Below are positions 24,897 to 42,318 of a DNA stretch of 64,000 bases, in pieces (positions within the stretch are counted from its first letter, which is position 1; each line of letters opens with the position of its first letter). Where the stretch lies: assembly GCA_965219385.1 (NCBI GenBank), contig CBDCNM010000002.1, positions 3,978,305 through 4,042,304 on the forward strand, read 5' to 3'. A model generated the notes under the pieces. It was given only the letters and a program-made list of their open reading frames with translations, made no database searches and was not told where the DNA came from. Made by a program: the position numbers and the translations under genes. This stretch comes from Candidatus Latescibacterota bacterium (GTDB lineage Bacteria; Latescibacterota; UBA2968; UBA8231).

Positions 24897-25099
24897 CTGG
24901 ACTTTTGCAAATTTGACTTTTTGCGCGCTTTGCTGATATTGCTACAGCAATCGGCATGGAGTCCGCTAGCGACGTATTAAATGTCCAATATGTTGATTTT
25001 AAATTACTTATAGATGAAATAGGTCAAAGCGGTTCAATGGGCTGTCTTTTCGTGAAACGATGATTTTCTACAAATTTTCCGATTTTTGCAAAAGTCCAG
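24897..25099. mobile_element. 203-bp MITE-like non-autonomous element
   Basis: 15-bp perfect terminal inverted repeats CTGGACTTTTGCAAA / TTTGCAAAAGTCCAG, flanked by the direct repeat TATTTA (24891-24896 and 25100-25105). No coding capacity. Confidence 0.8.
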
Positions 25100-25348
25100 T
25101 ATTTATCTATAAAGGATGTCTTAAGGTCGGTTGCTGTCTTATCCAGCTAAACACACGATACAATCTGAAAAACATCGGTTTTTCAACGGCCTGCTAGACC
25201 CGAGGCCGAGTAGGTGGTACGCACATAGCGTTTAACCTGGACTTGGAGCCCTTCCTCCTGCATGATCCGTTGGACGCGTTTATGGTTGACCGCCACTCCG
25301 CTGGACTCTAAATGGTGAGTCAGCTTCCCATCCGAGTTTAATGTAGTA

Positions 25349-26857
25349 TTGAGGGCGGAGAGGGGAGCACGAAATGAGGATTCGTCAGTAAAATCTCACG
25401 CGAGGTGTCTCATTCCTATTGACACGGTCCGTTTTGCGCATATTCACCTCCCGGATGACGGCCAGGAGTTTCTGAAGGCACAGTTGGAGATGCTTGTTCA
25501 AGAACTGGAAGGAGCATCAGAGCCGGCACAGAAGGAGGCCGCGGCCAGTTTTCGGTCGGGGGAAGTGAGGTTCAAGAACTCCCAATATCGGGACGCTGCG
25601 AGGTTCTATCAGGCCTCCTTTGAAGCATTCGAGAGTCTGTCGGCCCTTCTAGCCCGAGGTGTGGCTCTGATGATGGTGTCGGAACTGACGGAAGCAGCTG
25701 AAGTATTTGAAGTGGGGCAAAAACTATCACAGACGCGAAAGGCCGCCAGCATGGAAGCGGCATTCGGAATCAATAGGGGACAGACATGCAACGATTTGGG
25801 TGAGCCAGTTCGGTCCCAAGAAGCCCTTGAAGAAGCACGGGATCTCTGCGAGGGGATTAAGGACCATGCGCTGGAAGTGATGGCGCTTCGGCATCTGGGG
25901 ACGGTTTTTCTGACGCAGGCTTTATATGATGAAGCACTGGAATGTTGTGAAGAGGCAATTCAGATTTCTAAGGACAAACGGGATAAGATAAGCCTTGGTC
26001 GTATCTTGTGTAATAAGGCTGTTATCCTTGCTTCTAAAGGAAATCTTAATGACGCTGAAGAAATTTTTCAGCAAGGACTTATGCTGGGGGAGGAATTGGA
26101 GGATCCATATATACGGGGACGAATCTACACGAATTTGGCAAGCCTTGACTTGACTCGTGGCAAGGCACAGAAGGCTACTTCTGCCTTAGAAAGAGCACTA
26201 GAAATTCATCGCAGCATCAGCTATCACCAAGGTGAAGCGAGAAACCTTGGAGAGCTTGCGTTTATTCAGATCGCCGAGGGTAATCTGGATATGGGACATC
26301 GTACATTTGAAAGTGCTATTAAAATTGATCGCAAGTTCGGGTACCGTCGAGGGGAAATAAGAGAACTATTGACGATGGCAAAGGTCGGACTTCGAGATAG
26401 TCAAATTGATAAGACACTACAGCTACTTCAGGCTGGTTATGACCTCGCCAAAGGGACATATCTTCGACACATTCAAGTTGGGACTTCCGTGATATTGGTC
26501 TCATTGATGACCGACATTTTGACGGAGGAGCGAATTTCTATGTTGGAAGATAATATGGAGCTTAGTAGGTCCATAAATAGCCCGGTGTTACAGATAGGAA
26601 TCTTCAACGCTCTTAGTGATCTCTATATAGTTTCGGGGCTGTTCGAAAAAGCGATAACTTGCTGTCAGAAAGCTGTTAAGGAAAGTCGAAAGATTGGTAA
26701 CTTGCTCGAGGAAGCAAAGTCACTTGTGATTCTTTCCCACATCCATGAGCAGATGGGAGAAAGAGAACTCGCAGAAGAGAATATGAGCTTCGCTCAAGCA
26801 TTGTTTCAAAGTCAGGCTATCATATTAGATCAACCGAGTGGATACTACGCGTACTAG
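25349..26857 (+). CDS. Tetratricopeptide-repeat protein (about 40-aa helical repeats); start uncertain
   Basis: Repeated patterns of the type LG..Y/F...G...A...Y/F..AL.I along the ORF. No catalytic motif recognised. Confidence 0.8.
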   Translation: MRAERGARNEDSSVKSHARCLIPIDTVRFAHIHLPDDGQEFLKAQLEMLVQELEGASEPAQKEAAASFRSGEVRFKNSQYRDAARFYQASFEAFESLSALLARGVALMMVSELTEAAEVFEVGQKLSQTRKAASMEAAFGINRGQTCNDLGEPVRSQEALEEARDLCEGIKDHALEVMALRHLGTVFLTQALYDEALECCEEAIQISKDKRDKISLGRILCNKAVILASKGNLNDAEEIFQQGLMLGEELEDPYIRGRIYTNLASLDLTRGKAQKATSALERALEIHRSISYHQGEARNLGELAFIQIAEGNLDMGHRTFESAIKIDRKFGYRRGEIRELLTMAKVGLRDSQIDKTLQLLQAGYDLAKGTYLRHIQVGTSVILVSLMTDILTEERISMLEDNMELSRSINSPVLQIGIFNALSDLYIVSGLFEKAITCCQKAVKESRKIGNLLEEAKSLVILSHIHEQMGERELAEENMSFAQALFQSQAIILDQPSGYYAY

Positions 26858-26990
26858 GTAAGATCCTGATCTATTCGTTTGTTCTGCCGGCTTGTGCATT
26901 AGGAGTTTGTTAAAACTCCCTAGGAAACCCGATTTGCTGCAGCGCTACCATCCGAACACACTTTCCTAATTTAGGAGAAAGGATGATTCT

Positions 26991-27260
26991 ATGGACCCGA
27001 AAAAGATAGCTTTGGTCAAACCTGCTCGCGGTAGTTATGATGTGGCTGCCTCTGCCGTGGCAACCTATGCCTACCTCCCTGAGTGGTTGCAATGTGTCGC
27101 TGGTGTATTAGGTGGCGCTATGGCGGCTGGCGGTCCAGCAGGGCTCGCCCTCAGGGTCGCTGTCGTTGCTAGTGGCTTGACAATGGGACCTGCACTCTGG
27201 CTGATGCTCGCTGCAACCGCTGCTGGAGGAGCCCTATTGGGCGCCACCAACTTCTGTTAA
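26991..27260 (+). CDS. Candidate bacteriocin/RiPP precursor (Gly/Ala-rich, Cys35 and C-terminal Cys89)
   Basis: Strong RBS (AGGAGAAAGGA). Core reads WLQCVAGVLGGA...AAGGALLGATNFC. First small gene ahead of transport and maturation genes. Confidence 0.75.
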   Translation: MDPKKIALVKPARGSYDVAASAVATYAYLPEWLQCVAGVLGGAMAAGGPAGLALRVAVVASGLTMGPALWLMLAATAAGGALLGATNFC

Positions 27261-27325
27261 AAACTTTAGCAGAAGTTGGTGCGTAGTACAGCAGTTCGCA
27301 TGCTTTTCCTTGTAGGTAGCGCTGC

Positions 27326-27357
27326 AGCACTTTCATCCCTCCACGGATGAAAGTGCT
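27326..27357 (+). terminator. Strong stem-loop downstream of the precursor gene
   Basis: 13-bp perfect stem AGCACTTTCATCC / GGATGAAAGTGCT with a 6-nt loop and no long U tail. Confidence 0.6.
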
Positions 27358-27522
27358 TGGAAAAGGGTGCAGTTGGCGGCACAGGAAGCCAAGAAAATTC
27401 ACCGGATATAATTCTCCCAACGAGTGATCACTCGACACTGCGCTGGCCATTGAAGCCAAGCTCCCGAAGGGGCTTCAAGAAACTTTTCGATCCAAAAGGG
27501 AAGCATCATTCATGCTGACTAA

Positions 27523-28203
27523 ATGATCATGCTGACTAAGCTTGCGCCCATACTTTCAGTAAATTTAACTATTGGAAAACGCCTTGGTATCCAGCGAAAA
27601 GCACGTTTTTTAACACCGAGTCTTTACTTCTTAATGGCATTTACTCCACTCATTATAGGAATTACGCAAGACACAAATTTTGGGCAAGGTTCTCTTATTG
27701 TTGCTTTCTCTTCTTACAATTTCGTTGTTGCGGGTCTACTTAGAGGGATTGGCAAGAAAAACATCCAGTTACATCAGATCAGGATATATCCTTTGCCAGA
27801 CAGATCGATTTTCCGCCTTCTTTGGGTCATCGAACTTTTAGACTACACCCTCTTAATGCTCATCGTTTCGGCTATAGGGGTTATTCTGATGTTATATCCA
27901 GACTTCTTCATGATTACGCTTTGTTTGGTCTGCTTGGGTTTGGGCTATGCTTTGATGACTCTACTCGTTTCGGAAGCCAAACTTCTAATTTCGTTTTTCC
28001 CACCGTCGATTTATGTCATTGTTCTGGGAATCGCGGCATTAAATATTGCCTGTTTTTGGCTGTGGGCGTTTGTGACTAAGGGGGATCCTAACATCTACGA
28101 ATTTGTGTCGAATTGGGGGCTTCGGGTTTTTGTTTTTTGGACTTTTTTGCTGATTTCTCTTTACAAGATAGGTATCTTTTTTGTCTCGAAAATATTCAAA
28201 TGA
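27523..28203 (+). CDS. Polytopic membrane protein (probable ABC-2-type permease or immunity subunit)
   Basis: About 6 hydrophobic segments, AT-rich codons, translationally coupled to the next gene (ATGA). Confidence 0.65.
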   Translation: MIMLTKLAPILSVNLTIGKRLGIQRKARFLTPSLYFLMAFTPLIIGITQDTNFGQGSLIVAFSSYNFVVAGLLRGIGKKNIQLHQIRIYPLPDRSIFRLLWVIELLDYTLLMLIVSAIGVILMLYPDFFMITLCLVCLGLGYALMTLLVSEAKLLISFFPPSIYVIVLGIAALNIACFWLWAFVTKGDPNIYEFVSNWGLRVFVFWTFLLISLYKIGIFFVSKIFK

Positions 28204-28871
28204 TCCACTTTAGCCTTCCTCGCATCATCCCTCTGTGTTTGAACGATATGCGTTTGAGATTACGCATACTAGGTGGTCGTTCTGCCTGGGTGATTCTTAT
28301 AGGTGCAGGGTATTATCTTCTATTGTTGTCCCTCAAACTTTCCTTTATAGCTCCTTTCTTGATTTTTCTGCTCATATTAGGGACAGGGTTTAGTTCTATA
28401 CTGATATATCCCAAGGATTTTAAATTTTATGTAATTTCCGGTGTCAATCTCAGGGACGTCTTTTTGGGCAAAAATCTTAGCTTATTTTTGTTAGGTACCT
28501 TTGGTGCAATAGCATGTGGGTTTGGTTTTCAATGGAAGCCTTCGATTACGATCCGGCATAGTATTTCAGTTTTAATGTATTTCTGTATGATCATATTCCC
28601 TTTTCTCATTACTTTTAATTATGTTGCCGTATTCCGGCGTTTCTTCCGCGCTGTTCTCCTTCAATATCTTGTATTTCTTGTTGTATTATGTCTCTCTTCT
28701 ATTCCATACCTGATCTGTTGGATACATTTTGAATCCTCTATACTGTGTTTGTTGATAATTCTCATAGAGTTCATCTTGTATTATTTCACACTATTGAGCC
28801 ACATCGCCCCACTTGCTCATCATAAGGCCACTGAAATTGTCGAGATCAGCAATGAAATGTATTCAACTTGA
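28200..28871 (+). CDS. Polytopic membrane protein (probable ABC-2-type permease or immunity subunit)
   Basis: About 6 hydrophobic segments. Overlaps the upstream stop and the downstream ABC ATPase. Confidence 0.65.
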   Translation: MIHFSLPRIIPLCLNDMRLRLRILGGRSAWVILIGAGYYLLLLSLKLSFIAPFLIFLLILGTGFSSILIYPKDFKFYVISGVNLRDVFLGKNLSLFLLGTFGAIACGFGFQWKPSITIRHSISVLMYFCMIIFPFLITFNYVAVFRRFFRAVLLQYLVFLVVLCLSSIPYLICWIHFESSILCLLIILIEFILYYFTLLSHIAPLAHHKATEIVEISNEMYST

Positions 28872-29634
28872 TAACTTGCACTTAGAATATCAACGGGGAA
28901 AAATAAAAGCTTTAGATGGTCTGAATCTGCAGGTAGATCACGGTAGCTTCTTGGGGCTTTTAGGTCAAAATGGAGCTGGCAAGACTACCTTAATCCATAT
29001 ACTCGCAGGGCTCATTGCACAAAACTGCGGACAGATTCGTTTATTCAACCAGGAGATCCGATCTGATTCGTTCGCTCATAGGCAGCGAATAGGGTTCGTA
29101 CTTGACCAACCTACTTATTTTGACAGATTAACCTGTAGGGAGTTCCTGAAATTTGCCGGAGTGATGTACGACGTTCCTAAACATGAGTTAGACAATAAGG
29201 TTGAGGAACTACTGCGATTTTTCGATCTTACGGATGCCGAAGATAGATGGATTCATACATATTCAAAGGGTATGAAACAGAAGGTATCCCTGGCCGCGGC
29301 CATTATTCACGAGCCTGATTTATTGATTTTAGACGAACCATTTGACGGCATCGACACAACATCAACGGAAGAGATCAAGCAGATTCTGTTGCGGATGAAT
29401 CAAAAAGGGGTGACGATTGTTCTTACCTCGCATATCCTGGAATGGATTGAATCTTTGTGTACGGAGTGTGCGATCCTTCATAAAGGACAGGTGGTATTCC
29501 ACAGCAGGATAGATCAGTTGGAGTTGCAGTTGAAGAGATTAAACGACAGCAAGACAAAAGCTTCTTTGAGAGATGTTTTTCTTCAGGTTACATCGGGTGA
29601 CCGTACCCACAAGTCATTATCCTGGCTGGATTGA
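28852..29634 (+). CDS. ABC transporter ATP-binding protein (ABC-2/CcmA-like)
   Basis: Walker A GQNGAGKTT, signature YSKGMKQK, Walker B LLILDEP, H-loop TSH. Confidence 0.93.
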   Translation: MKCIQLDNLHLEYQRGKIKALDGLNLQVDHGSFLGLLGQNGAGKTTLIHILAGLIAQNCGQIRLFNQEIRSDSFAHRQRIGFVLDQPTYFDRLTCREFLKFAGVMYDVPKHELDNKVEELLRFFDLTDAEDRWIHTYSKGMKQKVSLAAAIIHEPDLLILDEPFDGIDTTSTEEIKQILLRMNQKGVTIVLTSHILEWIESLCTECAILHKGQVVFHSRIDQLELQLKRLNDSKTKASLRDVFLQVTSGDRTHKSLSWLD

Positions 29635-29656: not shown

Positions 29657-31405
29657 GTGAAAAAAGAGAAAAAAGAGCAGTATCGTTTCCTGGTACGTTT
29701 TTTTGCCTTTCTACAGCCCTATTGGCTCCGTGCCCTCGAGGCAGGGTTTTGTATGGTGTTTACGACCATTCTGGTTCTGCCGATGCCGCTGCTCTCCATT
29801 TACATAATCGATCAAGTCATTTCCAACAGGCAAGTGGAGGTGCTACACTTGGTGTGCGCGGCGTTGTCGCTGGCAACGGTACTAGGGCTTGGGTTGGGCT
29901 TCCTGCAGCGTTACCTGCTACTGGTGTTTGCGCGACGGGTGTTTTTCGATCTGGAGGTGCGGCTGTTCGAGAAGGTGCATGCGCTGCCGATCGCTTTTTT
30001 TAAAAAGCACGGATCGGGTTATATTGCAACGAGGGTCAGCGATGATGTCCGGCAGCTTGGGTCGCTAATGGCCGGGGCCTATATGGATGGCTTGAGCAGC
30101 TTGACGCTGCTGGCTGTGGGGCTAGGGATTATGTTCGCGATACACCCCGGGCTCTCTGCCGCCGTGCTGGTGGTGCTGCCAGGATTTGTGTGGGTAAACC
30201 TGCATTTCGGACGCAAGGTGCGGGAGCAGAGTGAGGAGGTGCAGGAGCGAAAGGGGATTGTAAACGCGTTGCGGTTGGAATCCCTGGATGCGGCGCACGT
30301 GGCGCGGGCGTTCGAGCGGGGGAGACTGGAAACGCGGCGTTTAGCCAAGGTTCTGCACACGGAGATAGATGTTGAGCTGAACCGGAATGTAACCATGGTG
30401 GGAGCCGGGGTGTTGCAGATACTCCTGTTCAGTGTGGGGGGCGTTTTTTTGCTATGGTACGGCGCGTACGAGATTATGGTGGGTGGTTTGACCCTTGGGC
30501 AGTTTGTGGCGTTCAATACACTGATGGCCTACGTCTACGGTCCCACGGGACAGCTTTCAGATCTGTACGTCAATTTCCAGCGTGGGATGGGAATTTTGAG
30601 GAGGGTACTGGACGTGCTTGACATGCCCGCCGAGGGTGGTCGGGGCATCGGAGCTCGACGCGTTCCCGCAGGCGAGCTTGCCTTTGAGGAGGTCCGGTTC
30701 GGGTACGTGCCCCACCGGCCGGTGTTGAACGGAGTGAATCTCACCCTAGAGCCCGGTCGGATCGCTGCGGTTGTGGGACCGACCGGGGCGGGGAAGACAA
30801 CACTGGTGAATCTGCTGCTTCGATTTTATGAGCCGCTTTCAGGGCGCATTCTGTTGGATGGAGAGGACCTTTCGACCTTCGGCGTGCAGGCACTGCGCAG
30901 GAGGGTCGCGCTGGTCGAGCAAGACCTCCGGCTATTTTCGGGGACGATTTGGGAGAATATTGCGTACGGCAAGCCGGGGGCGACGGAGGCAGAGGTAGAG
31001 GCTGCGGCTGAGGCGATGAATTGCATGGAGTTTGTGGAGCGGTTTCCGGCCGGACTGAAGGCGCGTATCGGATCGGGTGGCGTGCAGCTTTCCGGGGGGC
31101 AGAAGCAGCGGGTGGCTCTGGCGCGGGCGGTGGTCCGCGATCCGAAAGTCTTGGTGCTGGACGAGGCGACATCCTCCCTGGATGCTCGCTCAGAAGGCTT
31201 GGTCCAAGAGGCGTTGAAGCGGGCATCGGAGGGGCGCATGACCCTGGTGATTGCCCACCGGATTTCCACAGTGTCCATTGCAGACAAAATTTTTGTCCTG
31301 GCCAGCGGGCGGATTGTGGAAGAGGGGACATTAGAGGAACTTCTCGAGCGGGACGGTCATTTTAATGAATATTACCAGAAGGATCTGGTGATAGTGGCGG
31401 TATGA
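29657..31405 (+). CDS. ABC exporter, fused TMD-NBD, with no N-terminal C39 peptidase domain
   Basis: The TMD begins at the N-terminus. GPTGAGKT, LSGGQKQR, VLVLDEATSSLD, IAHR. 582 aa. Confidence 0.93.
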   Translation: MKKEKKEQYRFLVRFFAFLQPYWLRALEAGFCMVFTTILVLPMPLLSIYIIDQVISNRQVEVLHLVCAALSLATVLGLGLGFLQRYLLLVFARRVFFDLEVRLFEKVHALPIAFFKKHGSGYIATRVSDDVRQLGSLMAGAYMDGLSSLTLLAVGLGIMFAIHPGLSAAVLVVLPGFVWVNLHFGRKVREQSEEVQERKGIVNALRLESLDAAHVARAFERGRLETRRLAKVLHTEIDVELNRNVTMVGAGVLQILLFSVGGVFLLWYGAYEIMVGGLTLGQFVAFNTLMAYVYGPTGQLSDLYVNFQRGMGILRRVLDVLDMPAEGGRGIGARRVPAGELAFEEVRFGYVPHRPVLNGVNLTLEPGRIAAVVGPTGAGKTTLVNLLLRFYEPLSGRILLDGEDLSTFGVQALRRRVALVEQDLRLFSGTIWENIAYGKPGATEAEVEAAAEAMNCMEFVERFPAGLKARIGSGGVQLSGGQKQRVALARAVVRDPKVLVLDEATSSLDARSEGLVQEALKRASEGRMTLVIAHRISTVSIADKIFVLASGRIVEEGTLEELLERDGHFNEYYQKDLVIVAV

Positions 31406-31881
31406 GAATACCTCGGAATATCGAATGGCGGGCCGGCATAATTTTGGTCGGCGTATCAGCGTTTTTCTTGGGCCTGTTGATCGTTCTGGCACTTGCGGAT
31501 ATGGACGTGGGAATGGAGGTGGAGGGGGTGATGGGCAGGACACAGGCAGGATGGACGCTGGCTGTAGAGGTTCCCGGAGAGCGGCTGCGTTTGCTGCGAA
31601 CTTGCAGGTATGTGCGCATCGGATCCGGGAAAGGAAGGGTATGGTACGGTAAAATCTCCAGGATTGAAGGGCACTTGGTGGAAGACAGCCCGTTGGTACT
31701 GGCGGAGATCGAGATCCAGGCCGTGGATGCGACCGGCGTACAGGTCGATTCCTCTCAGATTGTGCGGGCTAATCTTCTTGAAGAGGTGAAAGCGCCAGTA
31801 TTGAGGGTGTTGTTCGACAGCATTTTCAGGCTCAATCTGGATTCTTCAACGCCGAAACGTGAGTACATGACAAGGCCATAG
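31402..31881 (+). CDS. Small membrane-anchored accessory protein (possible reduced HlyD-like adaptor)
   Basis: One N-terminal TM segment, then beta-rich sequence (YGKISRI). Coupled to the ABC exporter by an ATGA overlap. Confidence 0.55.
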   Translation: MRIPRNIEWRAGIILVGVSAFFLGLLIVLALADMDVGMEVEGVMGRTQAGWTLAVEVPGERLRLLRTCRYVRIGSGKGRVWYGKISRIEGHLVEDSPLVLAEIEIQAVDATGVQVDSSQIVRANLLEEVKAPVLRVLFDSIFRLNLDSSTPKREYMTRP

Positions 31882-31956: not shown

Positions 31957-33003
31957 ATGAAGATAGTCTCCAAGCTGTTGAAATTCAAGGGCTTCCGTGC
32001 TGTTGGCTTGTGGTTCGAAGGACCGGGAGGTGGCGACATCGTGGTCGCCGTCAAGCCGCACAAGACCGGCTGTCGCTGTCCGCTGCGCGGCCGCCGGGGC
32101 CCGATCGTGCATACCCTGCAACCCCGGCGCTGGCGTGACGTGCGCGTCTGTGGCCGGACCGTCTGGCTGCAGCACAGTCCCCGAGAGATCCGCTGCCCCA
32201 CCCATGGACGCCGCGTCGAAGATCCCCCATGGGCCGAACCGACGGCTCGCACCTCGTACCCCTTCGAGTATCTGCTGGTGCGCTCCTGTCAGGCCATGCC
32301 CCAAGTCACCGCGGCGCGCTTGTTGGGCATGGCTTCCTCGACTTTGTCTGACCTCCTGCACCGCCTCATCGGCCGAGTTCGCCCAAACCACAAGATACGC
32401 GGACTCCGAACCCTCGGCATCGACGAGATTTCCTACGTCCGAGGTCATAAATACGCCACCGTGGTCTATGATCTGGAACGCTCCTGCGTGGTCTGGGTCA
32501 GTCGCCGCAAGGCGCGCCAAACCATTGACCAACTCTTCGGGACTCTCAGCGACTACCAGCAGGCCCGCATCCGCTGGGCCTGCTGCGACCTGAGTGAGGC
32601 TTTCATGGGGGCCGTTCAACAGCACCGCCCCCATGCCCGGCTGGTGCTGGACCGGTTTCACGTCGTCAAGGCCATCAACGAGGCGGTCGATGAGGTCCGC
32701 AAGCAACAGTGGCGTGAGGGCTCGCCCCAGGATCGGGCCTCCTTGAAGGGGCTGCGCTGGCTCCTGTATCGCCACTCCTCCAGCCGTTCACGCCAGAACA
32801 CCGCCACCCTCAAAGCGCTGGAGAAAGGCAACCGGTGCATCTACCGAGCTTGGCGGCTCAAAGAAGACGAGTTCGAGCCGTTCTGGGAGTACCAAGCCCG
32901 GTGGGCGGCCGAGCGCTTCCTCAAGTGCTGGACGACGACGGCGCTCAAGAGCCGGTTGGAGCCCTTGCACAGGTACGTGGGCACGGTGCGCAAACACGCC
33001 GAC
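31957..33003 (+). mobile_element. ISL3-family transposase, 3'-truncated
   Basis: RRWRD, LGIDEISYVRGHKYATVVYDL, CDLS..F, LVLDRFHVVKAINEAVDEVRK, YRAWRLKE. The C-terminal catalytic Glu region is missing. Confidence 0.85.
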
Positions 33004-33230
33004 TGGTGTGCCTCCTGCGATACGATCCACCCCGCGCCCTTTCCTGCCACCATGTCCCGAGGTGGTCTGGTTGGGCCTCGATTGACCGGCTTAATCGGCT
33101 CTCTGAAAGGGGGCGGCCATCTATCCTATACGACGTTGCAAGCCCTGCTCGACCAAGGGCTGGGGGCGTTCCTTTCAACGGGGCTTTGGGCCAAAGTCGT
33201 CCATAAGGCCAGCCAAGCCCTGGCACCGAA
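33004..33230 (+). pseudogene. IS66-family transposase (TnpC) internal fragment fused in frame to the ISL3 remnant
   Basis: WCASC...GPRLTGLIGSL...HLSYTTLQALL...G.FLSTG resembles the IS66 zinc-finger/core junction. Confidence 0.65.
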
Positions 33231-33285
33231 CCATACTACTTTGGTGTGTTACCATGTACGGAAAAGTCGGAGTTGAGTCGGATTG

Positions 33286-33822
33286 ATGCGAAACCACCCC
33301 AAAGTTATTGCTCTGGTAGTGTTGTTGGCCCTCGTTGCGGGTACGGCCGGAGGCCTACTGTGGATTCACAGCAATTATAAGATTGAGAGCGTCGTACAGA
33401 TAGGTCAACCTCTGCCTACTTTAAGCTTTGCTGACCTCGACGGACAGGCTGTCGACTTTAACCACTTTCTCGGCCAGAAACTGCTGGTGGTGTTTGTAGA
33501 ACTCGAATGTGGCTTTTGCCAGGAGCAATTCGAAGTCCTGGAAGCCATCTACGGACAGGCAGAAGGTAGATTGGTTATAGTGGTTGTTGCGACATATGAC
33601 TCTTTTCTGTCATTTGATTCACTCCCAGAGAACTTCTCTCCTTTTCAGCTTTGGATTGATTCACAACGTCAGCTGCGGAGGAAACTCGGGGTTGTTGGTG
33701 TGCCGACTCTTTTTCTACTAGACGAGTATGGTATCTTGCAGTATAAGAAAGTAGGATATCAGGCTCTGGACGAAGTACAGAAAGTCATTGCTAGTATGGA
33801 AGGACACCTACCGATTCAATAA
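33286..33822 (+). CDS. Membrane-anchored TlpA/ResA-like thiol-disulfide oxidoreductase
   Basis: N-terminal TM segment, IGQPLP.LSFADLDG, CGFC (CxxC), GVPTLFLLD..G. Confidence 0.85.
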   Translation: MRNHPKVIALVVLLALVAGTAGGLLWIHSNYKIESVVQIGQPLPTLSFADLDGQAVDFNHFLGQKLLVVFVELECGFCQEQFEVLEAIYGQAEGRLVIVVVATYDSFLSFDSLPENFSPFQLWIDSQRQLRRKLGVVGVPTLFLLDEYGILQYKKVGYQALDEVQKVIASMEGHLPIQ

Positions 33823-33861: not shown

Positions 33862-34575
33862 ATGATCGCTCTTTCAAGCCTACGGCGTTTGACCTGGATG
33901 ATCTGGTCGCCCTCGCGGACCTTCGCTGAGATCTCCGAAAACCCAACATGGCTAGGCGTATACCTAGCGATTAGTCTTGGATCGGCCTTCGTTGCCTGGC
34001 TAAGTGCTCCTGTTTTTCAAAAAATATCCCTCTTGGCTTTGCCCGAGGCACTTTCCGACAGTCAGATAGAGCGCATTTCATGGATCAATCAGATAGTTCG
34101 GTATGCTTCTACAGCTACTGCTTTTCTGGTAACACTCCTTTCCTGGTTTGTTTCTTCGTTTCTGCTCTGGTTGATTGTTCAGATCTTTGAAGGACTGGCA
34201 AGCTTCAAGGCAATCTTTTCGGTAGTTGCACATTCAAGTGTGGTCACTTTGATTTCCGGCGCGACAGTGATAACTGTTCTTCTGATTGAAGTTCAAGACA
34301 ATGAAATTGAAGCGCAGGACTTGGAGATTAGAATGGGTCTTGACCTGTTCCTGGATGAGCAAGCGCATCCTGCGTTGATGGTCGTCTTGGCGAATCTCAA
34401 TCCATTCAATCTGTGGTACTACGGCCTCTTGTCCCTGGGTATTAGAACTATCTGTAAGTTCAATTGGTTGCGCTCTGTAGGTGTGGTCGTTCTTTTCTGG
34501 GTGCTCTGTATGGCGTTTGGGGCCGGGATCGCCTGGGTCCTGAGTGCCCTCAGTCCTCCAACACCTCAACCTTGA
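33862..34575 (+). CDS. YIP1-family membrane protein
   Basis: SPSRTFAEI...PTW motif, about 5 TM segments, LNPFNLW. Confidence 0.82.
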   Translation: MIALSSLRRLTWMIWSPSRTFAEISENPTWLGVYLAISLGSAFVAWLSAPVFQKISLLALPEALSDSQIERISWINQIVRYASTATAFLVTLLSWFVSSFLLWLIVQIFEGLASFKAIFSVVAHSSVVTLISGATVITVLLIEVQDNEIEAQDLEIRMGLDLFLDEQAHPALMVVLANLNPFNLWYYGLLSLGIRTICKFNWLRSVGVVVLFWVLCMAFGAGIAWVLSALSPPTPQP

Positions 34576-34587
34576 TAAGAGACTCCT

Positions 34588-36561
34588 ATGCTACAAGAAG
34601 AGCTTACAAACAAAGTTGCGTTCTCGGAGCTCAAGGGCCGGGGCGTCAAGGTCGCGGTTGTCGATAGCGGCATCGATTCGACACACCCGAAGATCAAGCT
34701 CCTTGCCGGTGGTGTCGACCTCTCCATAGGTCCGGATGGCCAGGTCGTGTCCACGACCGACTGTGCGGACCGGGCCGGCCATGGCACGGCCTGTGCCGGC
34801 ATCATCCTGAGAAAAGCCCCGGAGGTTGCGCTCTACAGCATTCGAATCTTCGATGAGTCGTTGGGGACAGACGGACGAACCCTGGTGGCCGCTCTTCGGT
34901 GGGCTATAGAGCACGAAATGGACGTGGTCAACCTGAGCCTGGGAACCACCGACGTGGCCTTTCGGGATGACCTGACCGCCGTGTGTCGCCAGGCGCACGA
35001 GGCCGGGACCATTCTGGTGGCGGCAGAGCACAACGAAGGATTGGAGAGCTACCCGGCCGTGCTGCCCCAGGTAATCGGCGTTACCGCAGGTAAGGTATAT
35101 GGACGCTATGGCTATTTTTTCCGGGCTGGAGAAACCATCGAATGCGTCGCCCGGGGGGATGCGCAGCGGCTCTGCTGGCTTGAACCACGGGAGGTCATGG
35201 CTGGCGGCACGAGCTTTGCAGCGCCGCATATTAGCGGAATAGTGGCCTTGATCAAGGAGGCTTGTCCCCAGGCAAGCTTGGGGGAGGTGTGCGAGATCCT
35301 GCAGGCGAACGCCACCGACGGTCAGCCCGAGCTCGTGCGGGGCGCGGACTACTTCACGCCTCCGGCATCGAGAAAAGCGCCTCCCAGCCCGCCCACGGCT
35401 TTTGCTACCGCTGAAGGAGCCAGGCCCTACGACTGGATTGGCAAAGCCGCTCTCTATCCTTACAACAAGGAGATGCATGGGTTTGTTCGCTACCTCGAAG
35501 GGCTCGCGTTCGAGATCGTCGGCATTGCCGATCCTGTGGGCAAGGGGCTGGTGGGCAAGGACGCCGGCGAGGCGATCGGCCTTCCTCCTGCGGGAATTCG
35601 CATCGCTCCTCGTCTTGTCGCGGCCCTCGAAGGGGCGGATACCCTGATTCTGGGTTACGTCGATGAACTGGCTCGCATCGCCAAACGCGATGTACTCCGC
35701 GAATCGATCCAGACCGCGCTGGACAAGGGACTCCATGTCTTCAGCTTCCTGCCGGTTCCACCTACCACGTATGGCGACCTGTACGCCAAGGCCCGCGACA
35801 AGAAACTCAAGATTGCCTACCCCGACATTGCGGTGGGGGAAGTGCAGCGCCTGCTGCAAAAGCCGCCCAATCACGGCGCAGTGGATGTTCCCGTGGTCGG
35901 CGTGTTCGGCACCAGTTCGCAACAGGGGAAATTCACGGTCCAGCTCGCTCTGAGAAAGAAACTGCTTGAGATGGGCTACAAGGTCGGGCAGATCGGCACC
36001 GAACACCAGTCAGAGCTTTTCGGTATGGACTTGGCCTTTCCCATGGGCTACGCCTCACCTTTGGTCCTGCCCGTGCAAGCCTATGTACCCTACCTGGACA
36101 TCAAAATGCGGGAAATATGCCGGCGGAAGCAGCCGGACATCCTCCTCGTCGGCTCCCAGTCAGGGACCATACCGTACGACATCGAGGAGCATGGCACCCA
36201 CGCTTTGCCTACCATCGCCTTCTTGCTGGGAACGAAACCCGATGTCTGCATTCTGGTGGTCAACAGCATTGATTCGGACGAGTACATCCAGGACACCATG
36301 AATGCCATTCGCGCCCTGGGAAAGGCGCCCACGATCCTTTTGGCGATGAGCGACAAGGAGAAGCACATCCGGGCCGCCTACGGGCGGAACTGGGTGACGC
36401 CGCGTCAGCTGTCGCGGGAGGAGATCAACGAGAAACTGCGCTACCTGGAGGACAAATTCGATTTGCCGGCTGTGGAGATCGCCTCGGAGGAAGGCCAGCA
36501 GAGGATAATGGAGACGGTGATTCAACACTTTGCGGCAGGGGGCCGGCAGGAGAAGGCATGA
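34588..36561 (+). CDS. S8 (subtilisin-like) peptidase fused to a DUF1611-like Rossmann + P-loop module
   Basis: Triad motifs VAVVDSG, GHGTACAG and GTSFAAP. C-terminal PVVGVFGTSSQQGKFT...GYKVGQIGTE...DILLVGSQSG...GTKPDVCIL. No signal peptide. Confidence 0.85.
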   Translation: MLQEELTNKVAFSELKGRGVKVAVVDSGIDSTHPKIKLLAGGVDLSIGPDGQVVSTTDCADRAGHGTACAGIILRKAPEVALYSIRIFDESLGTDGRTLVAALRWAIEHEMDVVNLSLGTTDVAFRDDLTAVCRQAHEAGTILVAAEHNEGLESYPAVLPQVIGVTAGKVYGRYGYFFRAGETIECVARGDAQRLCWLEPREVMAGGTSFAAPHISGIVALIKEACPQASLGEVCEILQANATDGQPELVRGADYFTPPASRKAPPSPPTAFATAEGARPYDWIGKAALYPYNKEMHGFVRYLEGLAFEIVGIADPVGKGLVGKDAGEAIGLPPAGIRIAPRLVAALEGADTLILGYVDELARIAKRDVLRESIQTALDKGLHVFSFLPVPPTTYGDLYAKARDKKLKIAYPDIAVGEVQRLLQKPPNHGAVDVPVVGVFGTSSQQGKFTVQLALRKKLLEMGYKVGQIGTEHQSELFGMDLAFPMGYASPLVLPVQAYVPYLDIKMREICRRKQPDILLVGSQSGTIPYDIEEHGTHALPTIAFLLGTKPDVCILVVNSIDSDEYIQDTMNAIRALGKAPTILLAMSDKEKHIRAAYGRNWVTPRQLSREEINEKLRYLEDKFDLPAVEIASEEGQQRIMETVIQHFAAGGRQEKA

Positions 36562-36833
36562 CCGATCGCGATGAGATACACCTGCGCGTAAAGCAGGTCC
36601 TTGTCAGCACACTGCAGATCGATGTAGATCCCGAGGACCTGCCGGATGACGAAGTGCTTTTCGGCGAGGGTCTGGGCGCATCCTCCATTGCCACGCTCGA
36701 AGTAGTCGCTGCCCTGGAGGAGGAATTCGGGTTCGGAGTGAATGATGATGATCTGCGCGTTGAACTATTTGAATCGGTCAACTCTCTGGTCGAGTATGTG
36801 GAGAGCAAGCTGGCAAAACCCGCGGAAGTTTGA
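36558..36833 (+). CDS. Acyl carrier protein (atypical LGASSI motif)
   Basis: 91 aa, acidic. LFGEGLGASSIATLEVVAALEEEFGFGVNDDD...FESVNSLVEYV follows the ACP helix pattern. Coupled to the S8 fusion. Confidence 0.85.
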   Translation: MTDRDEIHLRVKQVLVSTLQIDVDPEDLPDDEVLFGEGLGASSIATLEVVAALEEEFGFGVNDDDLRVELFESVNSLVEYVESKLAKPAEV

Positions 36834-36879: not shown

Positions 36880-37650
36880 ATGGAACAAAGTACGTCGGAG
36901 AACCTGGGCATTGGCCTAGTTGGACGGATGATCCGCACCTTCTCCGCTCCGAGTGAGACCTTCGCGTCGGTCCGGGAGCGGCAGACCTGGCTGGACTGGT
37001 TCGTGCCAGTGCTCATCGTCGCGCTGGTGAGCCTGGTCGTTGGCTTTATGACCATGCCCATCATCATGCAGGCCGGATCGGAGATGGTGCAGGAGCAGCT
37101 GCGGAACATGCCCGAAGAACAGCGAGCCATGATAGAGCAAGCCATGATAGAGCAAGCCATGATAGAGCAAGCCATGATGGAGAAGATGCAGGGAGCTACT
37201 CAGACGACGGGCCTGGTGATGATTCCCATCATGTCCTTTGTGTGGCTGTTCGTCGCCGGGGCTGTGCTGCTCGTAGTCGGCAACTTCATCCTGGGAGGCG
37301 AGGCCACCTATGGTCAAATGCTGGCGGTGAACGCCTACGCCTCCCTGGTGAGCCTAGTCAAGCTGGTCGTAACCACGCCACTGATGCTGGCGCAGAAGAC
37401 GGCCGTGATTCACACCGGCTTGGGCCTCTTCCTCTCGGAGGAGATGGGCAACACCTTTCTGGGTAGAGCACTCGCGGGAGTGGAGGTCTTCATGCTGTGG
37501 CAGGTTCTCGTCACGGCGATCGGGATGGGCGTGATGGCTGGCTGTTCCACCAAAAAAGCGCTGATCCCCCTGCTGATTATCTGGGCCATTTGGATCGTCG
37601 TTCAGGCGGTCCTGGGAGGCCTTGGCGCTATGTTCGGCCAGGGAGGGTGA
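36880..37650 (+). CDS. YIP1-family membrane protein (YknW/As-48E-like)
   Basis: APSETFASV....W motif, about 5 TM segments, EVFMLW. Confidence 0.82.
   Translation: MEQSTSENLGIGLVGRMIRTFSAPSETFASVRERQTWLDWFVPVLIVALVSLVVGFMTMPIIMQAGSEMVQEQLRNMPEEQRAMIEQAMIEQAMIEQAMMEKMQGATQTTGLVMIPIMSFVWLFVAGAVLLVVGNFILGGEATYGQMLAVNAYASLVSLVKLVVTTPLMLAQKTAVIHTGLGLFLSEEMGNTFLGRALAGVEVFMLWQVLVTAIGMGVMAGCSTKKALIPLLIIWAIWIVVQAVLGGLGAMFGQGG
37126..37178 (+). repeat. 15-bp tandem repeat x3.5 (encodes AMIEQ)
   Basis: GCCATGATAGAGCAA at 37126, 37141 and 37156, plus a partial copy. Confidence 0.95.
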
Positions 37651-37653
37651 TCG

Positions 37654-39039
37654 GTGCCGCCGGCGCAGCGTCCCAAACGCAGGAAGCGGACCGCTTCCCA
37701 CAAATTTCTAGTTCTGATTCTGGTGTTAGCTGTCATCGGCGTTATGGTCTATTTCAACTTGAAGAAGGAAAAGCCGCCGGAAATCTTCTCAACGACAGCC
37801 GTCGAACGTGGCGCTCTGGTAGACAAACTGGCGGAAACCGGTACGATTGAACTGGTGCGGACCGTGGAAGTGAAGTCCACGGTTTCCGGCGAGATCCTTG
37901 AACTCCCGGTAGAAACGGGAGATTGGGTCGTTGACGACCAGATCATGGCCGTAATCGAACCCGATCCCACCCAGTCTCTGCAGCTCTACCAAAAACGTTC
38001 CGCCGTGGAGCAGGCGCAGATCAACCTGGAAGAGCAGGAAAGGGATTTTGCCCGCCAGAAGACCCTCATCGAGAGTAAGATGCTCGCACCGACGGAGTTC
38101 GAGAAAGCAGAGACGAGGCTCATTAGAGCGAGAAACAACCTGCGTCTTGCGCAGTTGGAACTCCAGATTCTTGAGACCAAAGCGAATCTGGACCCCATCG
38201 AGGAGCAGGACGGTGTCCTGGCGCTCGACGAGGTCCGGGTGTTAGCCCCTATTGACGGCATTGTTATCCGACGAGACGTTGAAATCGGCGAGGTCGTGGT
38301 CTCGGGTCTCTCCTCCCTATCGGGCGGCGTGGTCCTGTTCGAGATCGGCGACCCCAGTCAGATGATTGTGCGCGCCAATATCGCCGAGATCGACATAGGT
38401 CAGCTGCAGACTGGCCAGGTAGTCGAGATCGTAGTAGATGCCTTCCCCGATACCACCTACCGGGGCCAAGTGCGCTGGATCGCTCCGGTGGGCAAGAAGA
38501 AGCAGGGCAACACCATAGTAACCTTTGAGGTGGAGATCGACATACTGGACCGCGAGCCCCGGCTCAGGCAGGGAATGTCCTGCGACCTGGACGTCATTTT
38601 TTCACGCCGGGACAGTACGCTCTATTTGCCGGTGGAAGCGGTGCTGGAGGTTTTTGATGAAGACGAAACCAGCGAAGAGAAGCTCAAGGGTCGACGAGGG
38701 CGAATCCTGGCCTACGTCGTGCGTCCAGTGCTTGGCGACTCCGCGGCAGTGGATTCCCTCGCTACGCCCGATAACGCCGCCGAGGTGACTGCCGATACGA
38801 CGGAGAGCGCAACTCTGGATAGTGCCCTTTACGGGCAAGATCAGGAACCGCCGAAGCACGTTTTGGACGAATTCGTCGAGGTAGAACTGCAGATAGGCCT
38901 GGAAACTTCCACCCGGATCGAGATCCTTGCCGGGTTAGAGGGGGGAGACCGGGTTGCAGAAGATCCCGGGTTGATACAACGGAAACTGGAGGAGAAGAAC
39001 AAAGCGCCGGAACCACAGGCACTCCAGACTTGGTTCTGA
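37654..39039 (+). CDS. Periplasmic adaptor / membrane fusion protein (MacA/YknX-like)
   Basis: N-terminal TM segment, VEVKSTVSGEI, coiled coil, APIDGIV, EIDIG.L..GQ, LRQGMS, EILAGLEGGD. Confidence 0.9.
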   Translation: MPPAQRPKRRKRTASHKFLVLILVLAVIGVMVYFNLKKEKPPEIFSTTAVERGALVDKLAETGTIELVRTVEVKSTVSGEILELPVETGDWVVDDQIMAVIEPDPTQSLQLYQKRSAVEQAQINLEEQERDFARQKTLIESKMLAPTEFEKAETRLIRARNNLRLAQLELQILETKANLDPIEEQDGVLALDEVRVLAPIDGIVIRRDVEIGEVVVSGLSSLSGGVVLFEIGDPSQMIVRANIAEIDIGQLQTGQVVEIVVDAFPDTTYRGQVRWIAPVGKKKQGNTIVTFEVEIDILDREPRLRQGMSCDLDVIFSRRDSTLYLPVEAVLEVFDEDETSEEKLKGRRGRILAYVVRPVLGDSAAVDSLATPDNAAEVTADTTESATLDSALYGQDQEPPKHVLDEFVEVELQIGLETSTRIEILAGLEGGDRVAEDPGLIQRKLEEKNKAPEPQALQTWF

Positions 39040-39181
39040 CGATGGTCCTTCATCGGTCACGTTTCCGGGTCCCATCCTAACGATCCCGCCTATGCCGGGA
39101 TAGGGGCGAGATGAAAAAAACCGCTCTACCGGACCAACCTGCCATCGGCCAGATTCTGGCCGCTTATGGGCCAATCTTCGA

Positions 39182-40411
39182 ATGGTATTCCATGAACCGA
39201 TAGCCGTGGGGCTGGCTCAGCTTAGAGCCAACAAGCTGCGTTCCTTTCTTACTCTCCTGGGCATTGTAATCGGCGTATCAGCGGTGATCGGGATCGTCTC
39301 CCTTGGCGAGGGCCTGCGGCGCACCGTGATGGGAGAGTTCGTCCAGAGGGGCGGTGCGGCCACAATTGAGGTAAACTCTCCAGCCGAGTGGGAAAGGAAG
39401 GATGGGCGATGGGTCAGACGTGCCTGGCAAGAGCATCTGACGAGCGATGACCTGGAGGACGTGAACCGCGAGACGGATCAAATACGGTCTGCCGTGCCTC
39501 TCGTTGGGGGGCAAGCGCAGCTTCAGCGTGGGAAAACCACGATGAGCGCCGGGTTCACCGGTACGTCGCCCCAGTACAACGAAGGATTCAGCTGGCCGGT
39601 AGACATTGGTCGCACGCTGACGGCAGAAGATGTGCGCTATGCCCGGCGGGTCTGCTTGATCGGCCGGAAGATTCTCCAGGATCTTTTTCAGAACGAAGAT
39701 CCCATCGGCAACGAACTCAAGCTGAACGGCGAACGCTATACCGTCGTGGGCGTACTCGAGGAGCGCGTTCGCTTTGGTCGGGAAGAGGGCAACCAAGTCC
39801 TTGTACCCTTCACGACGGTGCAGAAGCGAGTCACGGGCAACAAACAGTTGCTGGGAATTACGCTCTTCGTCAAGGAATTAGAGGCCGTGAACCGAGTGGC
39901 CCGAGCAGTGCGCCGCGTTCTGCAACGACGCCACCGGCACGGCGATGAGTTTCGCGTGGAGACAAGCCAGAAGCAGATAGAAGAAGCCAACAGAATTATC
40001 CGGGTTATGCAGCAAGTCGCCGGAGGGGTTGCCGGGATATCCCTGCTCGTAGGGGGTATCGGGATCATGAACATCATGCTGGTATCGGTGACAGAGCGCA
40101 CCCGCGAGATCGGCATCCGCAAGGCGGTGGGGGCTAAGCCGCGGCACATCCTTTTTCAGTTCCTGGCAGAGGCCGTCATCCTGACTCTGGCCGGTGGGGC
40201 CTTGGGCGCGGGGCTAGGAATGGGGTTTGGTCTTGGCCTCGAGCGGATCATCGAGCACTTCGCGCCCGGCTCTCCGTTTGCCAGCGTGGTTTCCTTCGAG
40301 TCCGTTCTCTGGGCCATGGGATTTGCCACCGTCGTCGGGGTGTTATTCGGGGTCTATCCGGCGTTCCGCGCCGCTCGTCTGGATCCGGTGGAAGCCCTGT
40401 ACTACGAATGA
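39182..40411 (+). CDS. MacB/FtsX-like ABC permease
   Basis: NKLRSFLTLLGIVIGV, GGIGIMNIMLVSVTERTREIGIRKAVGA, PAFRAARLDPVEAL. Confidence 0.93.
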   Translation: MVFHEPIAVGLAQLRANKLRSFLTLLGIVIGVSAVIGIVSLGEGLRRTVMGEFVQRGGAATIEVNSPAEWERKDGRWVRRAWQEHLTSDDLEDVNRETDQIRSAVPLVGGQAQLQRGKTTMSAGFTGTSPQYNEGFSWPVDIGRTLTAEDVRYARRVCLIGRKILQDLFQNEDPIGNELKLNGERYTVVGVLEERVRFGREEGNQVLVPFTTVQKRVTGNKQLLGITLFVKELEAVNRVARAVRRVLQRRHRHGDEFRVETSQKQIEEANRIIRVMQQVAGGVAGISLLVGGIGIMNIMLVSVTERTREIGIRKAVGAKPRHILFQFLAEAVILTLAGGALGAGLGMGFGLGLERIIEHFAPGSPFASVVSFESVLWAMGFATVVGVLFGVYPAFRAARLDPVEALYYE

Positions 40412-41631
40412 AGCTCCTCGAAGCCATACAGATCGCGCTGAGTCAACTCTGGGCCAACAAGCTGCGGTCTACGCTTACCCTGCTGGGAATGTTGATCGGG
40501 GTCGGCTCGGTAGTCGGCATTGTCTCCATCGGCGAGGGGATGCGCCGGACCATCGTTGACGAGTTCGGAAAACTGGGAGGAGGCAACCTGATCGTAGTCG
40601 CGCCGCAGCAGTGGATCATCAGAGATGGCCGGTGGGTCAAGGCCACCCACTTCGAGCCACTGACCCTGAAGGACATTGCCTATGTCGAAGCGGCGTCTGA
40701 GCGCATTGCCTCCGTGGTACCTCGCCTCCCAACCGAAGGACAGATCCGTCACGGGAAAACGACAAGTGCCGGACTGGTGATCGGGACGATGCCTCTGTAC
40801 ACGCGCGCCCTTGACTGGGAAGTGGATGTGGGACGCTTCCTTACCCCAGTTGACGTCGAGGACAATCGCACCGTCTGCGTTCTTGGGCAAAATCTCAGTA
40901 CGGATCTCTTTCCCGTTCTGTCCCCAATAGGACGTGAAGTGAAACTGAACGGTCGACGCTACACGGTGGTGGGGGTGATGGAGGAGAGGAGAATGTTCGG
41001 CCAGGATTGGGGCAATCAGGTCATCGTGCCGGTGACGACCGCACAGAAACGGATGCTCGGCAGCAAGCGGATCGGCGAGCTGATTGTGCACACGACTGAG
41101 CCGACCGATGTGCCGCTGGTCATTCCAGCGATCGAAAAGGAGCTGAGAAGGTACCATGGAACGAACGCGACCTACCGCATCGACAGTGGTAAGGGCATCC
41201 TGGAACAGGTCGAGCAGACGATTCTGATCATGAAGCTCGTGGCCGGCGGCATAGCCGGAATTTCCTTGCTGGTCGGCGGAGTCGGAATCATGAATATCAT
41301 GCTCGTCTCGGTGACCGAACGCACCCGTGAGATCGGCATTCGCAAGGCCCTAGGCGCCAAGCCGACTACCTTGCTGCTGCAGTTCACGGTGGAGGCGATA
41401 ACCCTCAGTCTGGCGGGAGGAGTGCTCGGGGTGGGGGTGGGGATTGGACTGGGTCTGGGCATCTCTCACGTCATCGAGCACTACACTGAACTCCCCTTCC
41501 CGAGCGTTGTTGCACCTGAGTCAATCGCTCTCTCTTTGATTGTTTCCATGGCTGTGGGTTTGTTCTTCGGCATTTTTCCCGCGGCACGCGCGTCACGCAT
41601 GGATCCTGTGGATGCGCTTCGTTCCGAATGA
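40408..41631 (+). CDS. MacB/FtsX-like ABC permease (paralog of the preceding gene)
   Basis: NKLRSTLTLLGMLIGV, MNIMLVSVTERTREIGIRKALGA, PAARASRMDPVDALR. Confidence 0.93.
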   Translation: MKLLEAIQIALSQLWANKLRSTLTLLGMLIGVGSVVGIVSIGEGMRRTIVDEFGKLGGGNLIVVAPQQWIIRDGRWVKATHFEPLTLKDIAYVEAASERIASVVPRLPTEGQIRHGKTTSAGLVIGTMPLYTRALDWEVDVGRFLTPVDVEDNRTVCVLGQNLSTDLFPVLSPIGREVKLNGRRYTVVGVMEERRMFGQDWGNQVIVPVTTAQKRMLGSKRIGELIVHTTEPTDVPLVIPAIEKELRRYHGTNATYRIDSGKGILEQVEQTILIMKLVAGGIAGISLLVGGVGIMNIMLVSVTERTREIGIRKALGAKPTTLLLQFTVEAITLSLAGGVLGVGVGIGLGLGISHVIEHYTELPFPSVVAPESIALSLIVSMAVGLFFGIFPAARASRMDPVDALRSE

Positions 41632-41634
41632 GTC

Positions 41635-42318
41635 GTGCTCATAGAACTCGAACACATTGAGAAGGTCTACAGACGGGGAGCAGAGGAGGTCTATGCTCTC
41701 CGCGATGTGGACCTCGGTCTAAAACAGAATGAGTACGCCGCTATCATGGGGCCATCCGGCTCTGGGAAATCCACCTTGATGAATATCCTGGGTTGCCTGG
41801 ACACCCCTACTGCTGGGCTGTACCGCCTTGCGGGCATTGACGTCTCGAAAATGAATCCAAACGAACTCGCCGAGGTACGCAGCGAACAGATCGGGTTTGT
41901 GTTCCAGACCTTCAATCTGTTGCCACGGGCCTCGGCCCTGCACAATGTTGAGGTACCGTTGATCTATGCAGGTACAAGACGGAGAGTTCGACGCGAGAGG
42001 GCGGAGGAAGCGTTGGAGCGGGTCGGTCTTGCCGACCGGATGGAGCACCGACCTTCCGAACTATCGGGAGGACAGTGTCAGCGTGTGGCGATCGCGCGAG
42101 CACTGGTCAACCAACCATCAATCCTGCTGGCCGATGAGCCCACGGGCAATCTGGACAGCCGCATCGGGGAGGAAATCATGTCCCTCTTTGACGCTCTCCA
42201 CGACGAAGGGAATACCGTGATTCTGGTGACCCACGAAGTGAATATCGCCCGGCACGCCCAGCGCACGATTCAGATCCTGGACGGGGGCATTACCGCGGAT
42301 GAGCGGAACCCCCCTTGA
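41635..42318 (+). CDS. ABC ATP-binding protein (MacB/LolD-like)
   Basis: [38 protein letters not shown]. Confidence 0.95.

Follow-up and report, generated by a model that had tools for sequence, protein, structure and literature searches.

A predicted bacteriocin-like precursor and a fused subtilase-DUF1611 protein in Candidatus Latescibacterota: a candidate variant of the CLI_3235/SacP23 maturation system

The closest described relatives of the gene cluster considered here belong to the TIGR04065-TIGR04069 maturation system, represented by CLI_3235 and by SacP23 of Paenibacillus polymyxa; freyrasin is presumably linked to the same system. The SacP23 cluster encodes a precursor, a radical SAM protein, a TIGR04066 protein, a TIGR04069 acyl carrier protein (ACP), a subtilase, and an ABC transporter; SacP23 has heterologous antibacterial activity, and the TIGR04066 protein was guessed to provide immunity (PMC10731318). 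In the literature searched, no demonstrated function was found for the TIGR04066 protein or the ACP of the CLI_3235/SacP23 clusters. The core of the precursor invites comparison with the Blp/lactacin and lactobin A/cerein 7B peptides (PF10439). Blp peptides are described as 44-61 aa long, with even numbers of Cys residues and a thioredoxin in their cassette, and the lactobin A/cerein 7B family is defined by double-glycine cleavage (PMC12943804). No description of the precursors analyzed below or of the chemistry of their fused enzyme was found in the literature searched, most subscription papers and supplements lying outside that search; supplements of sponge biosynthetic gene cluster surveys may list these clusters.

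Gene cluster and proposed pathway

The window is the whole 64-kb stretch of DNA that was analyzed. All genes of the precursor cluster lie on the same strand, and their order is common to four other loci (L001, L002, L004, and L005). The cluster comprises the following features:

25349..26857, + strand: TPR-only protein (Pfam TPR), also conserved immediately before the precursor gene of related loci; homologues in L001, L002, L004, L005, L071-L073, and L100
26991..27260, + strand: precursor peptide of 89 aa, leader M1-Y28 plus hydrophobic 61-aa core L29-C89 (ORF, alignment, RNA contigs)
26991..27074, + strand: leader, K-x-x-L-x-K-P-x-R ... T-Y-A-Y, CLI_3235-type, with a predicted cut between Y28 and L29 (alignment, leader rule)
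27075..27257, + strand: core with two Cys, C35 and C89, and a putative disulfide (sequence)
27523..28203, + strand: membrane protein 1, likely an ABC permease or self-protection subunit (no Pfam match; homologues in L002 and L005)
28113..28871, + strand: membrane protein 2, likely an ABC permease or self-protection subunit (no Pfam match; homologues in L002 and L005)
28813..29634, + strand: ABC ATPase, DrrA/lantibiotic-protection-like (profile match)
29657..31405, + strand: ABC exporter (ABC_membrane and ABC_tran) without a C39 peptidase domain (Pfam)
31402..31881, + strand: conserved 159-aa protein with an N-terminal hydrophobic stretch (homologues in related loci)
31957..33276, + strand: ISL3 transposase inserted in the operon, absent from relatives at this position (Pfam, locus comparison)
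33283..33822, + strand: membrane-anchored thioredoxin (ResA/TlpA-like), CxxC = CGFC, candidate for forming the core disulfide (profile match)
33862..34575, + strand: Yip1/YknW-like membrane protein (profile match)
34588..36561, + strand: S8 subtilase (D26/H65/S209) fused to a TIGR04066-like DUF1611 domain with a DgcN-like fold (profiles, alignment, model)
36558..36833, + strand: acyl carrier protein that keeps Ser43 (GLGASSI), its gene overlapping the S8 stop codon (profile match, alignment)
36880..37650, + strand: second Yip1/YknW-like protein (profile match)
37654..42318, + strand: membrane-fusion protein, two MacB permeases, and ATPase, export or protection module (profile match)

Several features are shared with the CLI_3235/SacP23 system (PMC10731318): (i) a basic leader ending in x-x-A-Y, (ii) a subtilase, (iii) an acyl-carrier-like protein, and (iv) an ABC exporter lacking C39; a TIGR04066-like domain is present as well, scoring below the cut-off of that profile. 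Unlike that system, the window cluster has no radical SAM gene (CcpM, TIGR04068), and its S8 and TIGR04066-like domains are fused; its core is long and hydrophobic with two Cys, whereas the CLI_3235 core is Cys-rich, and it adds thioredoxin and Yip1/MacB modules. The radical SAM motif CxxxCxxC occurs in no long ORF of the window, and radical SAM genes were seen in 6 of 60 related loci. The TIGR04065 profile matches none of the 22 members of the precursor family and nothing in the window's own genome, and the ACP matches PP-binding, TIGR04069 not being among its matches. By its gene content, the cluster is apparently a radical-SAM-free, protease-fused variant of the TIGR04065-TIGR04069 maturation system. 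Lacking a radical SAM enzyme, it would represent a minimal two-protein system, the S8-DUF1611 fusion and the ACP, for which the substrate is defined and the cut predicted, and this pair bears on the unexplained roles of TIGR04066 and the ACP in CLI_3235/SacP23.

The reading that we favor, and consider fairly probable as a whole, is that the gene encodes a ribosomal precursor of a membrane-active, bacteriocin-like antibacterial peptide. The S8 protease of the cluster, probably cytoplasmic, would cut the basic leader after Tyr28 and free the 61-residue core, which the C39-less ABC transporter would export. A Cys35-Cys89 disulfide, with the CxxC thioredoxin as its candidate maker, would close the core, and the mature peptide would act on membranes; the two ABC modules may serve for self-protection, and the N-terminus is possibly capped by an acyl group from the ACP. 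All six thioredoxin homologues examined retain the CxxC, and we take the module at 37654..42318 to resemble YknWXYZ/As-48EFGH. There is a single precursor gene in the cluster and thus no two-peptide partner.

The last residues of the 159-aa protein differ from those of its homologues where the ISL3 element begins. This element is present in a single copy in the genome, and its insertion upstream of the thioredoxin, protease, and ACP genes may be polar on them, which counts against the favored reading. The second Yip1 gene contains a threefold tandem IEQAM repeat, and a large protein at 18831-21749 of the window combines tetratricopeptide-like repeats with a threefold tandem repeat of LQVGSRLDS.

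Precursor gene and family

The ORF at 26991-27260 is preceded by a purine-rich ribosome-binding stretch; no terminator or convincing promoter was found near it. As the sequence-only reading had stated, the 89-aa peptide contains exactly two Cys residues (C35 and the terminal C89) and GxxxG motifs, of which there are four, all in the core, which has a net charge of 0, a GRAVY of 1.22, and 43% Gly+Ala. The peptide has no match in Pfam or NCBIfam even at E<=10, and single-sequence searches recovered only the precursor itself and one homologue. A family profile, seeded with small ORFs from the four loci of the same gene order, returned 23 proteins; after removal of a near-duplicate (P0002) and a fragment (P0023), the family alignment holds 22 sequences including the window's precursor, a lower bound for the family size. 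Of the homologues, P0007 comes closest, with 54% identity along the whole sequence.

Residues M1, K10, Y28, E31, C35, and C89 are invariant in the 22-sequence alignment, and all 22 cores have exactly two Cys, a GRAVY of 0.69-1.26, and a length of 52-74 residues. As 21 further homologues share the invariant positions and the Cys pair, the ORF is, on the strength of the alignment, real and more than a product of chance. Leaders are better conserved than cores: identity is 0.83 versus 0.53 among the 12 closest sequences and 0.50 versus 0.38 among all 22, which by sequence comparison is the usual pattern of a precursor.

Of 168 genomes of the phylum, nine carry members of the precursor family. All nine encode an S8-DUF1611 fusion, five in cis and four in trans; in one genome (G102) the unlinked protease is split in two. 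That genome and another (G103) have divergent cores without the terminal Cys, so that core C-termini in the family end in Cys, in Cys-Ser, or in a longer tail (G102/G103). In G040 (L100 and L006) and G041 (L071 and L003), the cluster is split between two distant loci, one with the precursor, TPR, and BtrH genes and the other with the S8-DUF1611 and ACP genes. A scan of JGI metagenomes with P0007 confirmed none of 599 candidates; the same scan with the protease gave 14 loci, and the sole precursor found in the 12 examined was that of L005. The core had no tblastn match in plasmids, and the three matches of the family profile to PDB were all at chance level.

These data bear on the view that the ORF has nothing to do with the protease cluster and is a commonplace small membrane protein or a degenerate reading frame. 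The hydrophobic core, the absence of a family match, and the IS insertion in the cluster fit such a view; conservation of leader over core, the invariant Cys pair, the constant gene neighborhood, and the presence of the protease in all nine genomes speak against it, and we regard it as hardly credible. The first assignment of the ORF as a leader-core precursor is upheld by the identities of the 12 closest sequences.

Contigs from all three sponge RNA libraries compared, which belong to one study, are identical to the precursor gene over 26954-27291 (0 differences), and the four RNA runs with the gene are sponge metatranscriptomes of one study. The contigs show presence in these libraries, neither strand nor level being readable from them. 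For the rest of the 18-kb cluster, no full-length matching contig was found in the three runs; as these runs were selected with the precursor gene, expression cannot be ranked within the cluster. GC content is 38-46% over most of 24500-29500, which covers the TPR and membrane genes, compared with about 60% in the genome and 59% in the precursor gene; cassette exchange is a possible origin of this low-GC stretch.

Leader, cut site, and candidate processing enzyme

The leader is of neither the double-glycine nor the secretory type. The first GG/GA of the peptide is at residues 41-42, within the core, and hydropathy is at most 0.55 in 19-residue windows starting at residues 1-17, so that there is no Sec core; both properties had been read correctly from the letters. 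The cut had been placed within ATYAY, before its last Tyr (ATYA/Y, the slash marking the cut). The family boundary lies one residue later, between Y28 and L29 (ATYAY/LPE), as the conserved Tyr that ends the leader is Y28. In the nearest homologues, TTYAY/HSEW aligns with ATYAY/LPEW of the window. Two other sites were discarded: a cut after Y26 (VATY/AYL), since the alignment of the closest homologues and the invariant Glu fit only Y28, and an internal cut at GG 41-42, since no C39 peptidase was found and the invariant C35 would be removed.

Conservation marks the boundary and not the scissile bond. A cut one residue beyond the Tyr is possible, given that the 19-aa leader of SacP23 is itself only a prediction (PMC10731318). 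Processing of the leader by the S8 enzyme near Y28 is quite probable in our judgment. Subtilisins favor an aromatic residue at P1 and a small one at P2, consistent with a cut after A-Y. The early proposal of the S8 fusion as the likely processing enzyme agrees with its presence in all nine family-bearing genomes and with the C39 search: PF03412 was not found in the window's own genome, which is 94% complete (the control was positive in 7 of 14).

The resemblance to CLI_3235 leader ends, noted loosely at first, holds for genuine members of that family. Two TIGR04065 members (L085 and L086) were found among 401 Bacillota genomes; their leaders end in LEAY and VQAY. At both loci an ABC exporter, a radical SAM gene, and an adjoining TIGR04066-like gene are present, and one has a separate S8 gene. 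When the leader HMM was applied to these CLI_3235 leaders, L086 scored above all 500 shuffles, and the score of L085 was reached by 46 of 500. We further formulated a leader rule (ribosome site, basic start, and [VITL]x[ATL]Y at 15-30), which is post hoc, written from seen examples, and includes some evident false matches. On the protease strand it picks out 53 of 1550 small ORFs, on the opposite strand 5 of 1256; matches occur in 40 of 60 S8-DUF1611 loci, and Glu is found at Tyr+3 in 38 of the 53 matches.

The protein at 34588-36561 has the catalytic triad D26/H65/S209, invariant in 35 aligned proteases. Its similarity to subtilisin begins at about residue 10, and it has neither a signal nor a pro-region, so that the S8-DUF1611 enzyme is probably cytoplasmic. 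Complex prediction for precursor residues 1-40 with the protease gave a score of 0.33, with 0.00 for the best control, which is weak support: in calibration, 116 of 157 solved pairs scored at least this high, as did 2 of 215 mismatches, and the range up to 0.60 contains only 18 solved pairs plus both mismatches. The prediction runs share at least 38% of contacts, with a partner pLDDT of at least 42. We also compared 60 loci with relatives of the protease, mostly from Candidatus Latescibacterota. In a tree limited to a quick run of 52 rows, ten partial protease rows being left out, a branch (support 84, not starred) sets the seven proteases associated with hydrophobic cores apart from the others; because the labelled loci are also those closest to the query, this clustering is weak evidence.

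Relation of the core to bacteriocins

The core had been described as a cerein 7B/Blp-type class II core grafted onto an S8-processed leader. Likeness at the level of motifs stands. The window core shares with the Blp/lactacin and lactobin A/cerein 7B peptides a Gly/Ala-rich sequence with GxxxG motifs that starts with W-x-x-C and has an even number of Cys residues placed towards its two ends, as well as a nearby thioredoxin. Unlike these systems, the present cluster has neither a double-glycine leader nor a C39 transporter and encodes a single precursor; its core is neutral, family cores are mostly anionic, and there is no profile match. Membership in the family does not hold, as PF10439 gives no match for the peptide at E<=10 and matches 1 of 22 family members, at E 0.32. 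Atlas matches for the precursor are all at or below 0.85 (BlpM 0.81) and serve as leads only.

For a closer comparison, 10 double-glycine cores were scored against the family core, with 500 shuffles each. The Lactobacillus comparator among them was picked beforehand for its likeness, cerein 7B itself is not among the comparators, and the Bacillota PF10439 sample contains no W-x-x-C subtype. The core matches the L. salivarius Blp peptide LSL_RS10550 better than all 500 shuffles, by both HMM and pairwise comparison; for RS10555, shuffles were as good in 4 of 500 cases (pairwise) and 12 of 500 (HMM). The Cys-free double-glycine peptide L079 scores 29.5 bits on the core HMM, versus 22.4 for the Blp peptide, so that composition drives much of the core-HMM signal.

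These scores bear on the proposal of a Blp/lactacin-type class II gene that exchanged its double-glycine leader for one of the CLI_3235 type by recombination. The pattern W-x-x-C..G-G-A..G-P-W..G-x-x-x-x-C aligns with LSL_RS10550 above all 500 shuffles and with RS10555 closely, and thioredoxins are likewise found in Blp cassettes (PMC12943804). Set against this are the single PF10439 match in the family, the failure to find a PF10439 gene in the window's own genome, the higher score of L079, and the way in which the comparator was picked; we consider a leader swap improbable. The pattern likeness behind the grafting claim is retained; grafting is unproven, there being no profile match and most cores being anionic; as judged from the sequences, a graft and convergence on a Gly/Ala-rich two-Cys hairpin are indistinguishable. 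In its action the peptide may resemble a class II bacteriocin, but it does not belong to that class.

Class II bacteriocins are typically cationic, and charge counts against an antibacterial role, as the window core has a net charge of 0 and 19 of the 22 cores are negative, the remaining two carrying +1. Antibacterial membrane activity seems to us somewhat likelier than its absence. The cores being neutral or anionic would equally suit a product of the same S8 processing and export that acts as a signal or host-interaction peptide, with the upstream TPR protein as its receptor or chaperone. The same leader stands before acidic, Cys-rich, and 110-120-aa cores unlike bacteriocins, each such locus examined has a TPR gene before or beside the precursor, and the precursor gene is present in sponge RNA libraries. 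By Pfam, however, the TPR protein has no DNA-binding domain; the two additional ABC modules, one lantibiotic-protection-like and the other Yip1/MacB, point to self-protection, and long glycine-zipper cores such as this one resemble pore formers. We therefore rate a signal or host-interaction role as rather unlikely.

The length and hydrophobicity of the core, together with the Yip1, membrane-fusion protein, MacB, and ATPase module, also suggested a circular bacteriocin-like product, the S8 enzyme joining the two ends of the 61-aa core. PatG is an example of an S8 macrocyclase, and Atlas leads point to circular bacteriocin clusters, at 0.79, under the 0.9 lead level. Neither the membrane proteins nor four homologues have a DUF95/SpoIIM match at E<=10, the two invariant Cys and the conserved CxxC thioredoxin point to a disulfide instead, and C-termini vary among family members. 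Head-to-tail cyclization is, in our estimate, very unlikely. The disulfide-closed, bacteriocin-like peptide is the reading retained below.

DUF1611 domain, ACP, and other cargoes

The C-terminal part of the fusion is a full-length homologue of TIGR04066 (E 1.2e-34; 119.9 bits, the cut-off being 200). In a model built from 85 sequences (pLDDT 86.1; an alignment-free fold with a pLDDT of 37.9 was discarded), the C-terminal domain (residues ~280-647) matches as a whole the DUF1611 structures 2g0t (Z 29.7, rmsd 3.0, 315 aligned) and 2obn (Z 28.5, rmsd 2.9, 313 aligned) and the D-glutamate N-acetyltransferase DgcN, 7xrj (Z 24.2, rmsd 4.1, 306 aligned, 19% identity). According to this model the domain folds like DgcN. 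It differs from DgcN in being joined to a protease and in having an ACP as its partner; a shared fold does not establish function.

ACP genes are present in 45 of the 60 loci; the ACP of the window has Ser-Ser where its relatives have Asp-Ser or Asn-Ser. A BtrH_N protein is encoded in 13 loci and a distant BtrH-like protein in 24 (Atlas 0.97-0.98, hhalign 31%), 37 of 60 in total and never both. BtrH takes an acyl group from a carrier protein and transfers it to an amine, which makes two candidate acyltransferases, the DUF1611 domain and the BtrH-like enzyme. The window's cluster lacks BtrH-like and acyl-loading genes; the sole candidate in the genome, a homologue of the distant type with 40% identity, is located about 1.7 Mb from it. 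It is conceivable, if somewhat short of an even chance, that the DUF1611 domain, the BtrH-like enzyme, or both put an ACP-borne acyl group on the freed N-terminus. The distant BtrH-like gene at L061:9732-10766 (G000:C2:2265731) adjoins two glycosyltransferase-like genes, a two-component pair, and an efflux-pump fragment. The distant BtrH-like subfamily appears to lack the N-terminal Cys of the BtrH_N group, and in L019 (8018-8662) and 10 other loci a 214-aa protein without a Pfam match is encoded between the ACP and BtrH genes.

The cargoes behind the leader are of four kinds: short Cys-rich, acidic Trp/Cys-rich, 110-120-aa acidic, and hydrophobic two-Cys. The leader was observed before unrelated, unannotated cores (25-aa Cys-rich, acidic Trp/Cys-rich, or 110-120-aa acidic) in L007, L008, L010, L013-L020, L022, and L023, and likewise in L026, L027, L029-L033, L036-L039, L041-L047, L049, L050, L054, L056, and L057. 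TIGR04066-like domains are encoded in 84 of the 168 genomes of the phylum, with up to 7 matches per genome. Neither Pfam nor NCBIfam recognizes the precursors tested, so that the leader rule gives access to a large and hidden repertoire of peptides; a short leader tolerant of varied cargo could also serve as a processing tag. The phylum has already been flagged as biosynthetically rich in sponges (PMC9426513).

A more speculative proposal, which we hold to be doubtful, is that the fusion is a bifunctional subtilase and DgcN-fold acyltransferase that would cut the shared leader and cap the new N-terminus with an ACP-borne acyl group. The leader would then be a plug-in tag for cargoes ranging from 25-residue Cys-rich to 120-residue peptides, and the product of this locus would be lipidated, disulfide-closed, and bacteriocin-like. 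If true, this would define a new class of N-acylated ribosomal peptides within reach of about half of the genomes of a largely uncultured phylum.

Elsewhere in the genome, a broken DUF1611/TIGR04066-like fragment (G000:C2:3080290-3080965, L062) adjoins a response-regulator fragment and IS remnants, and is probably what is left of a decayed second cluster.
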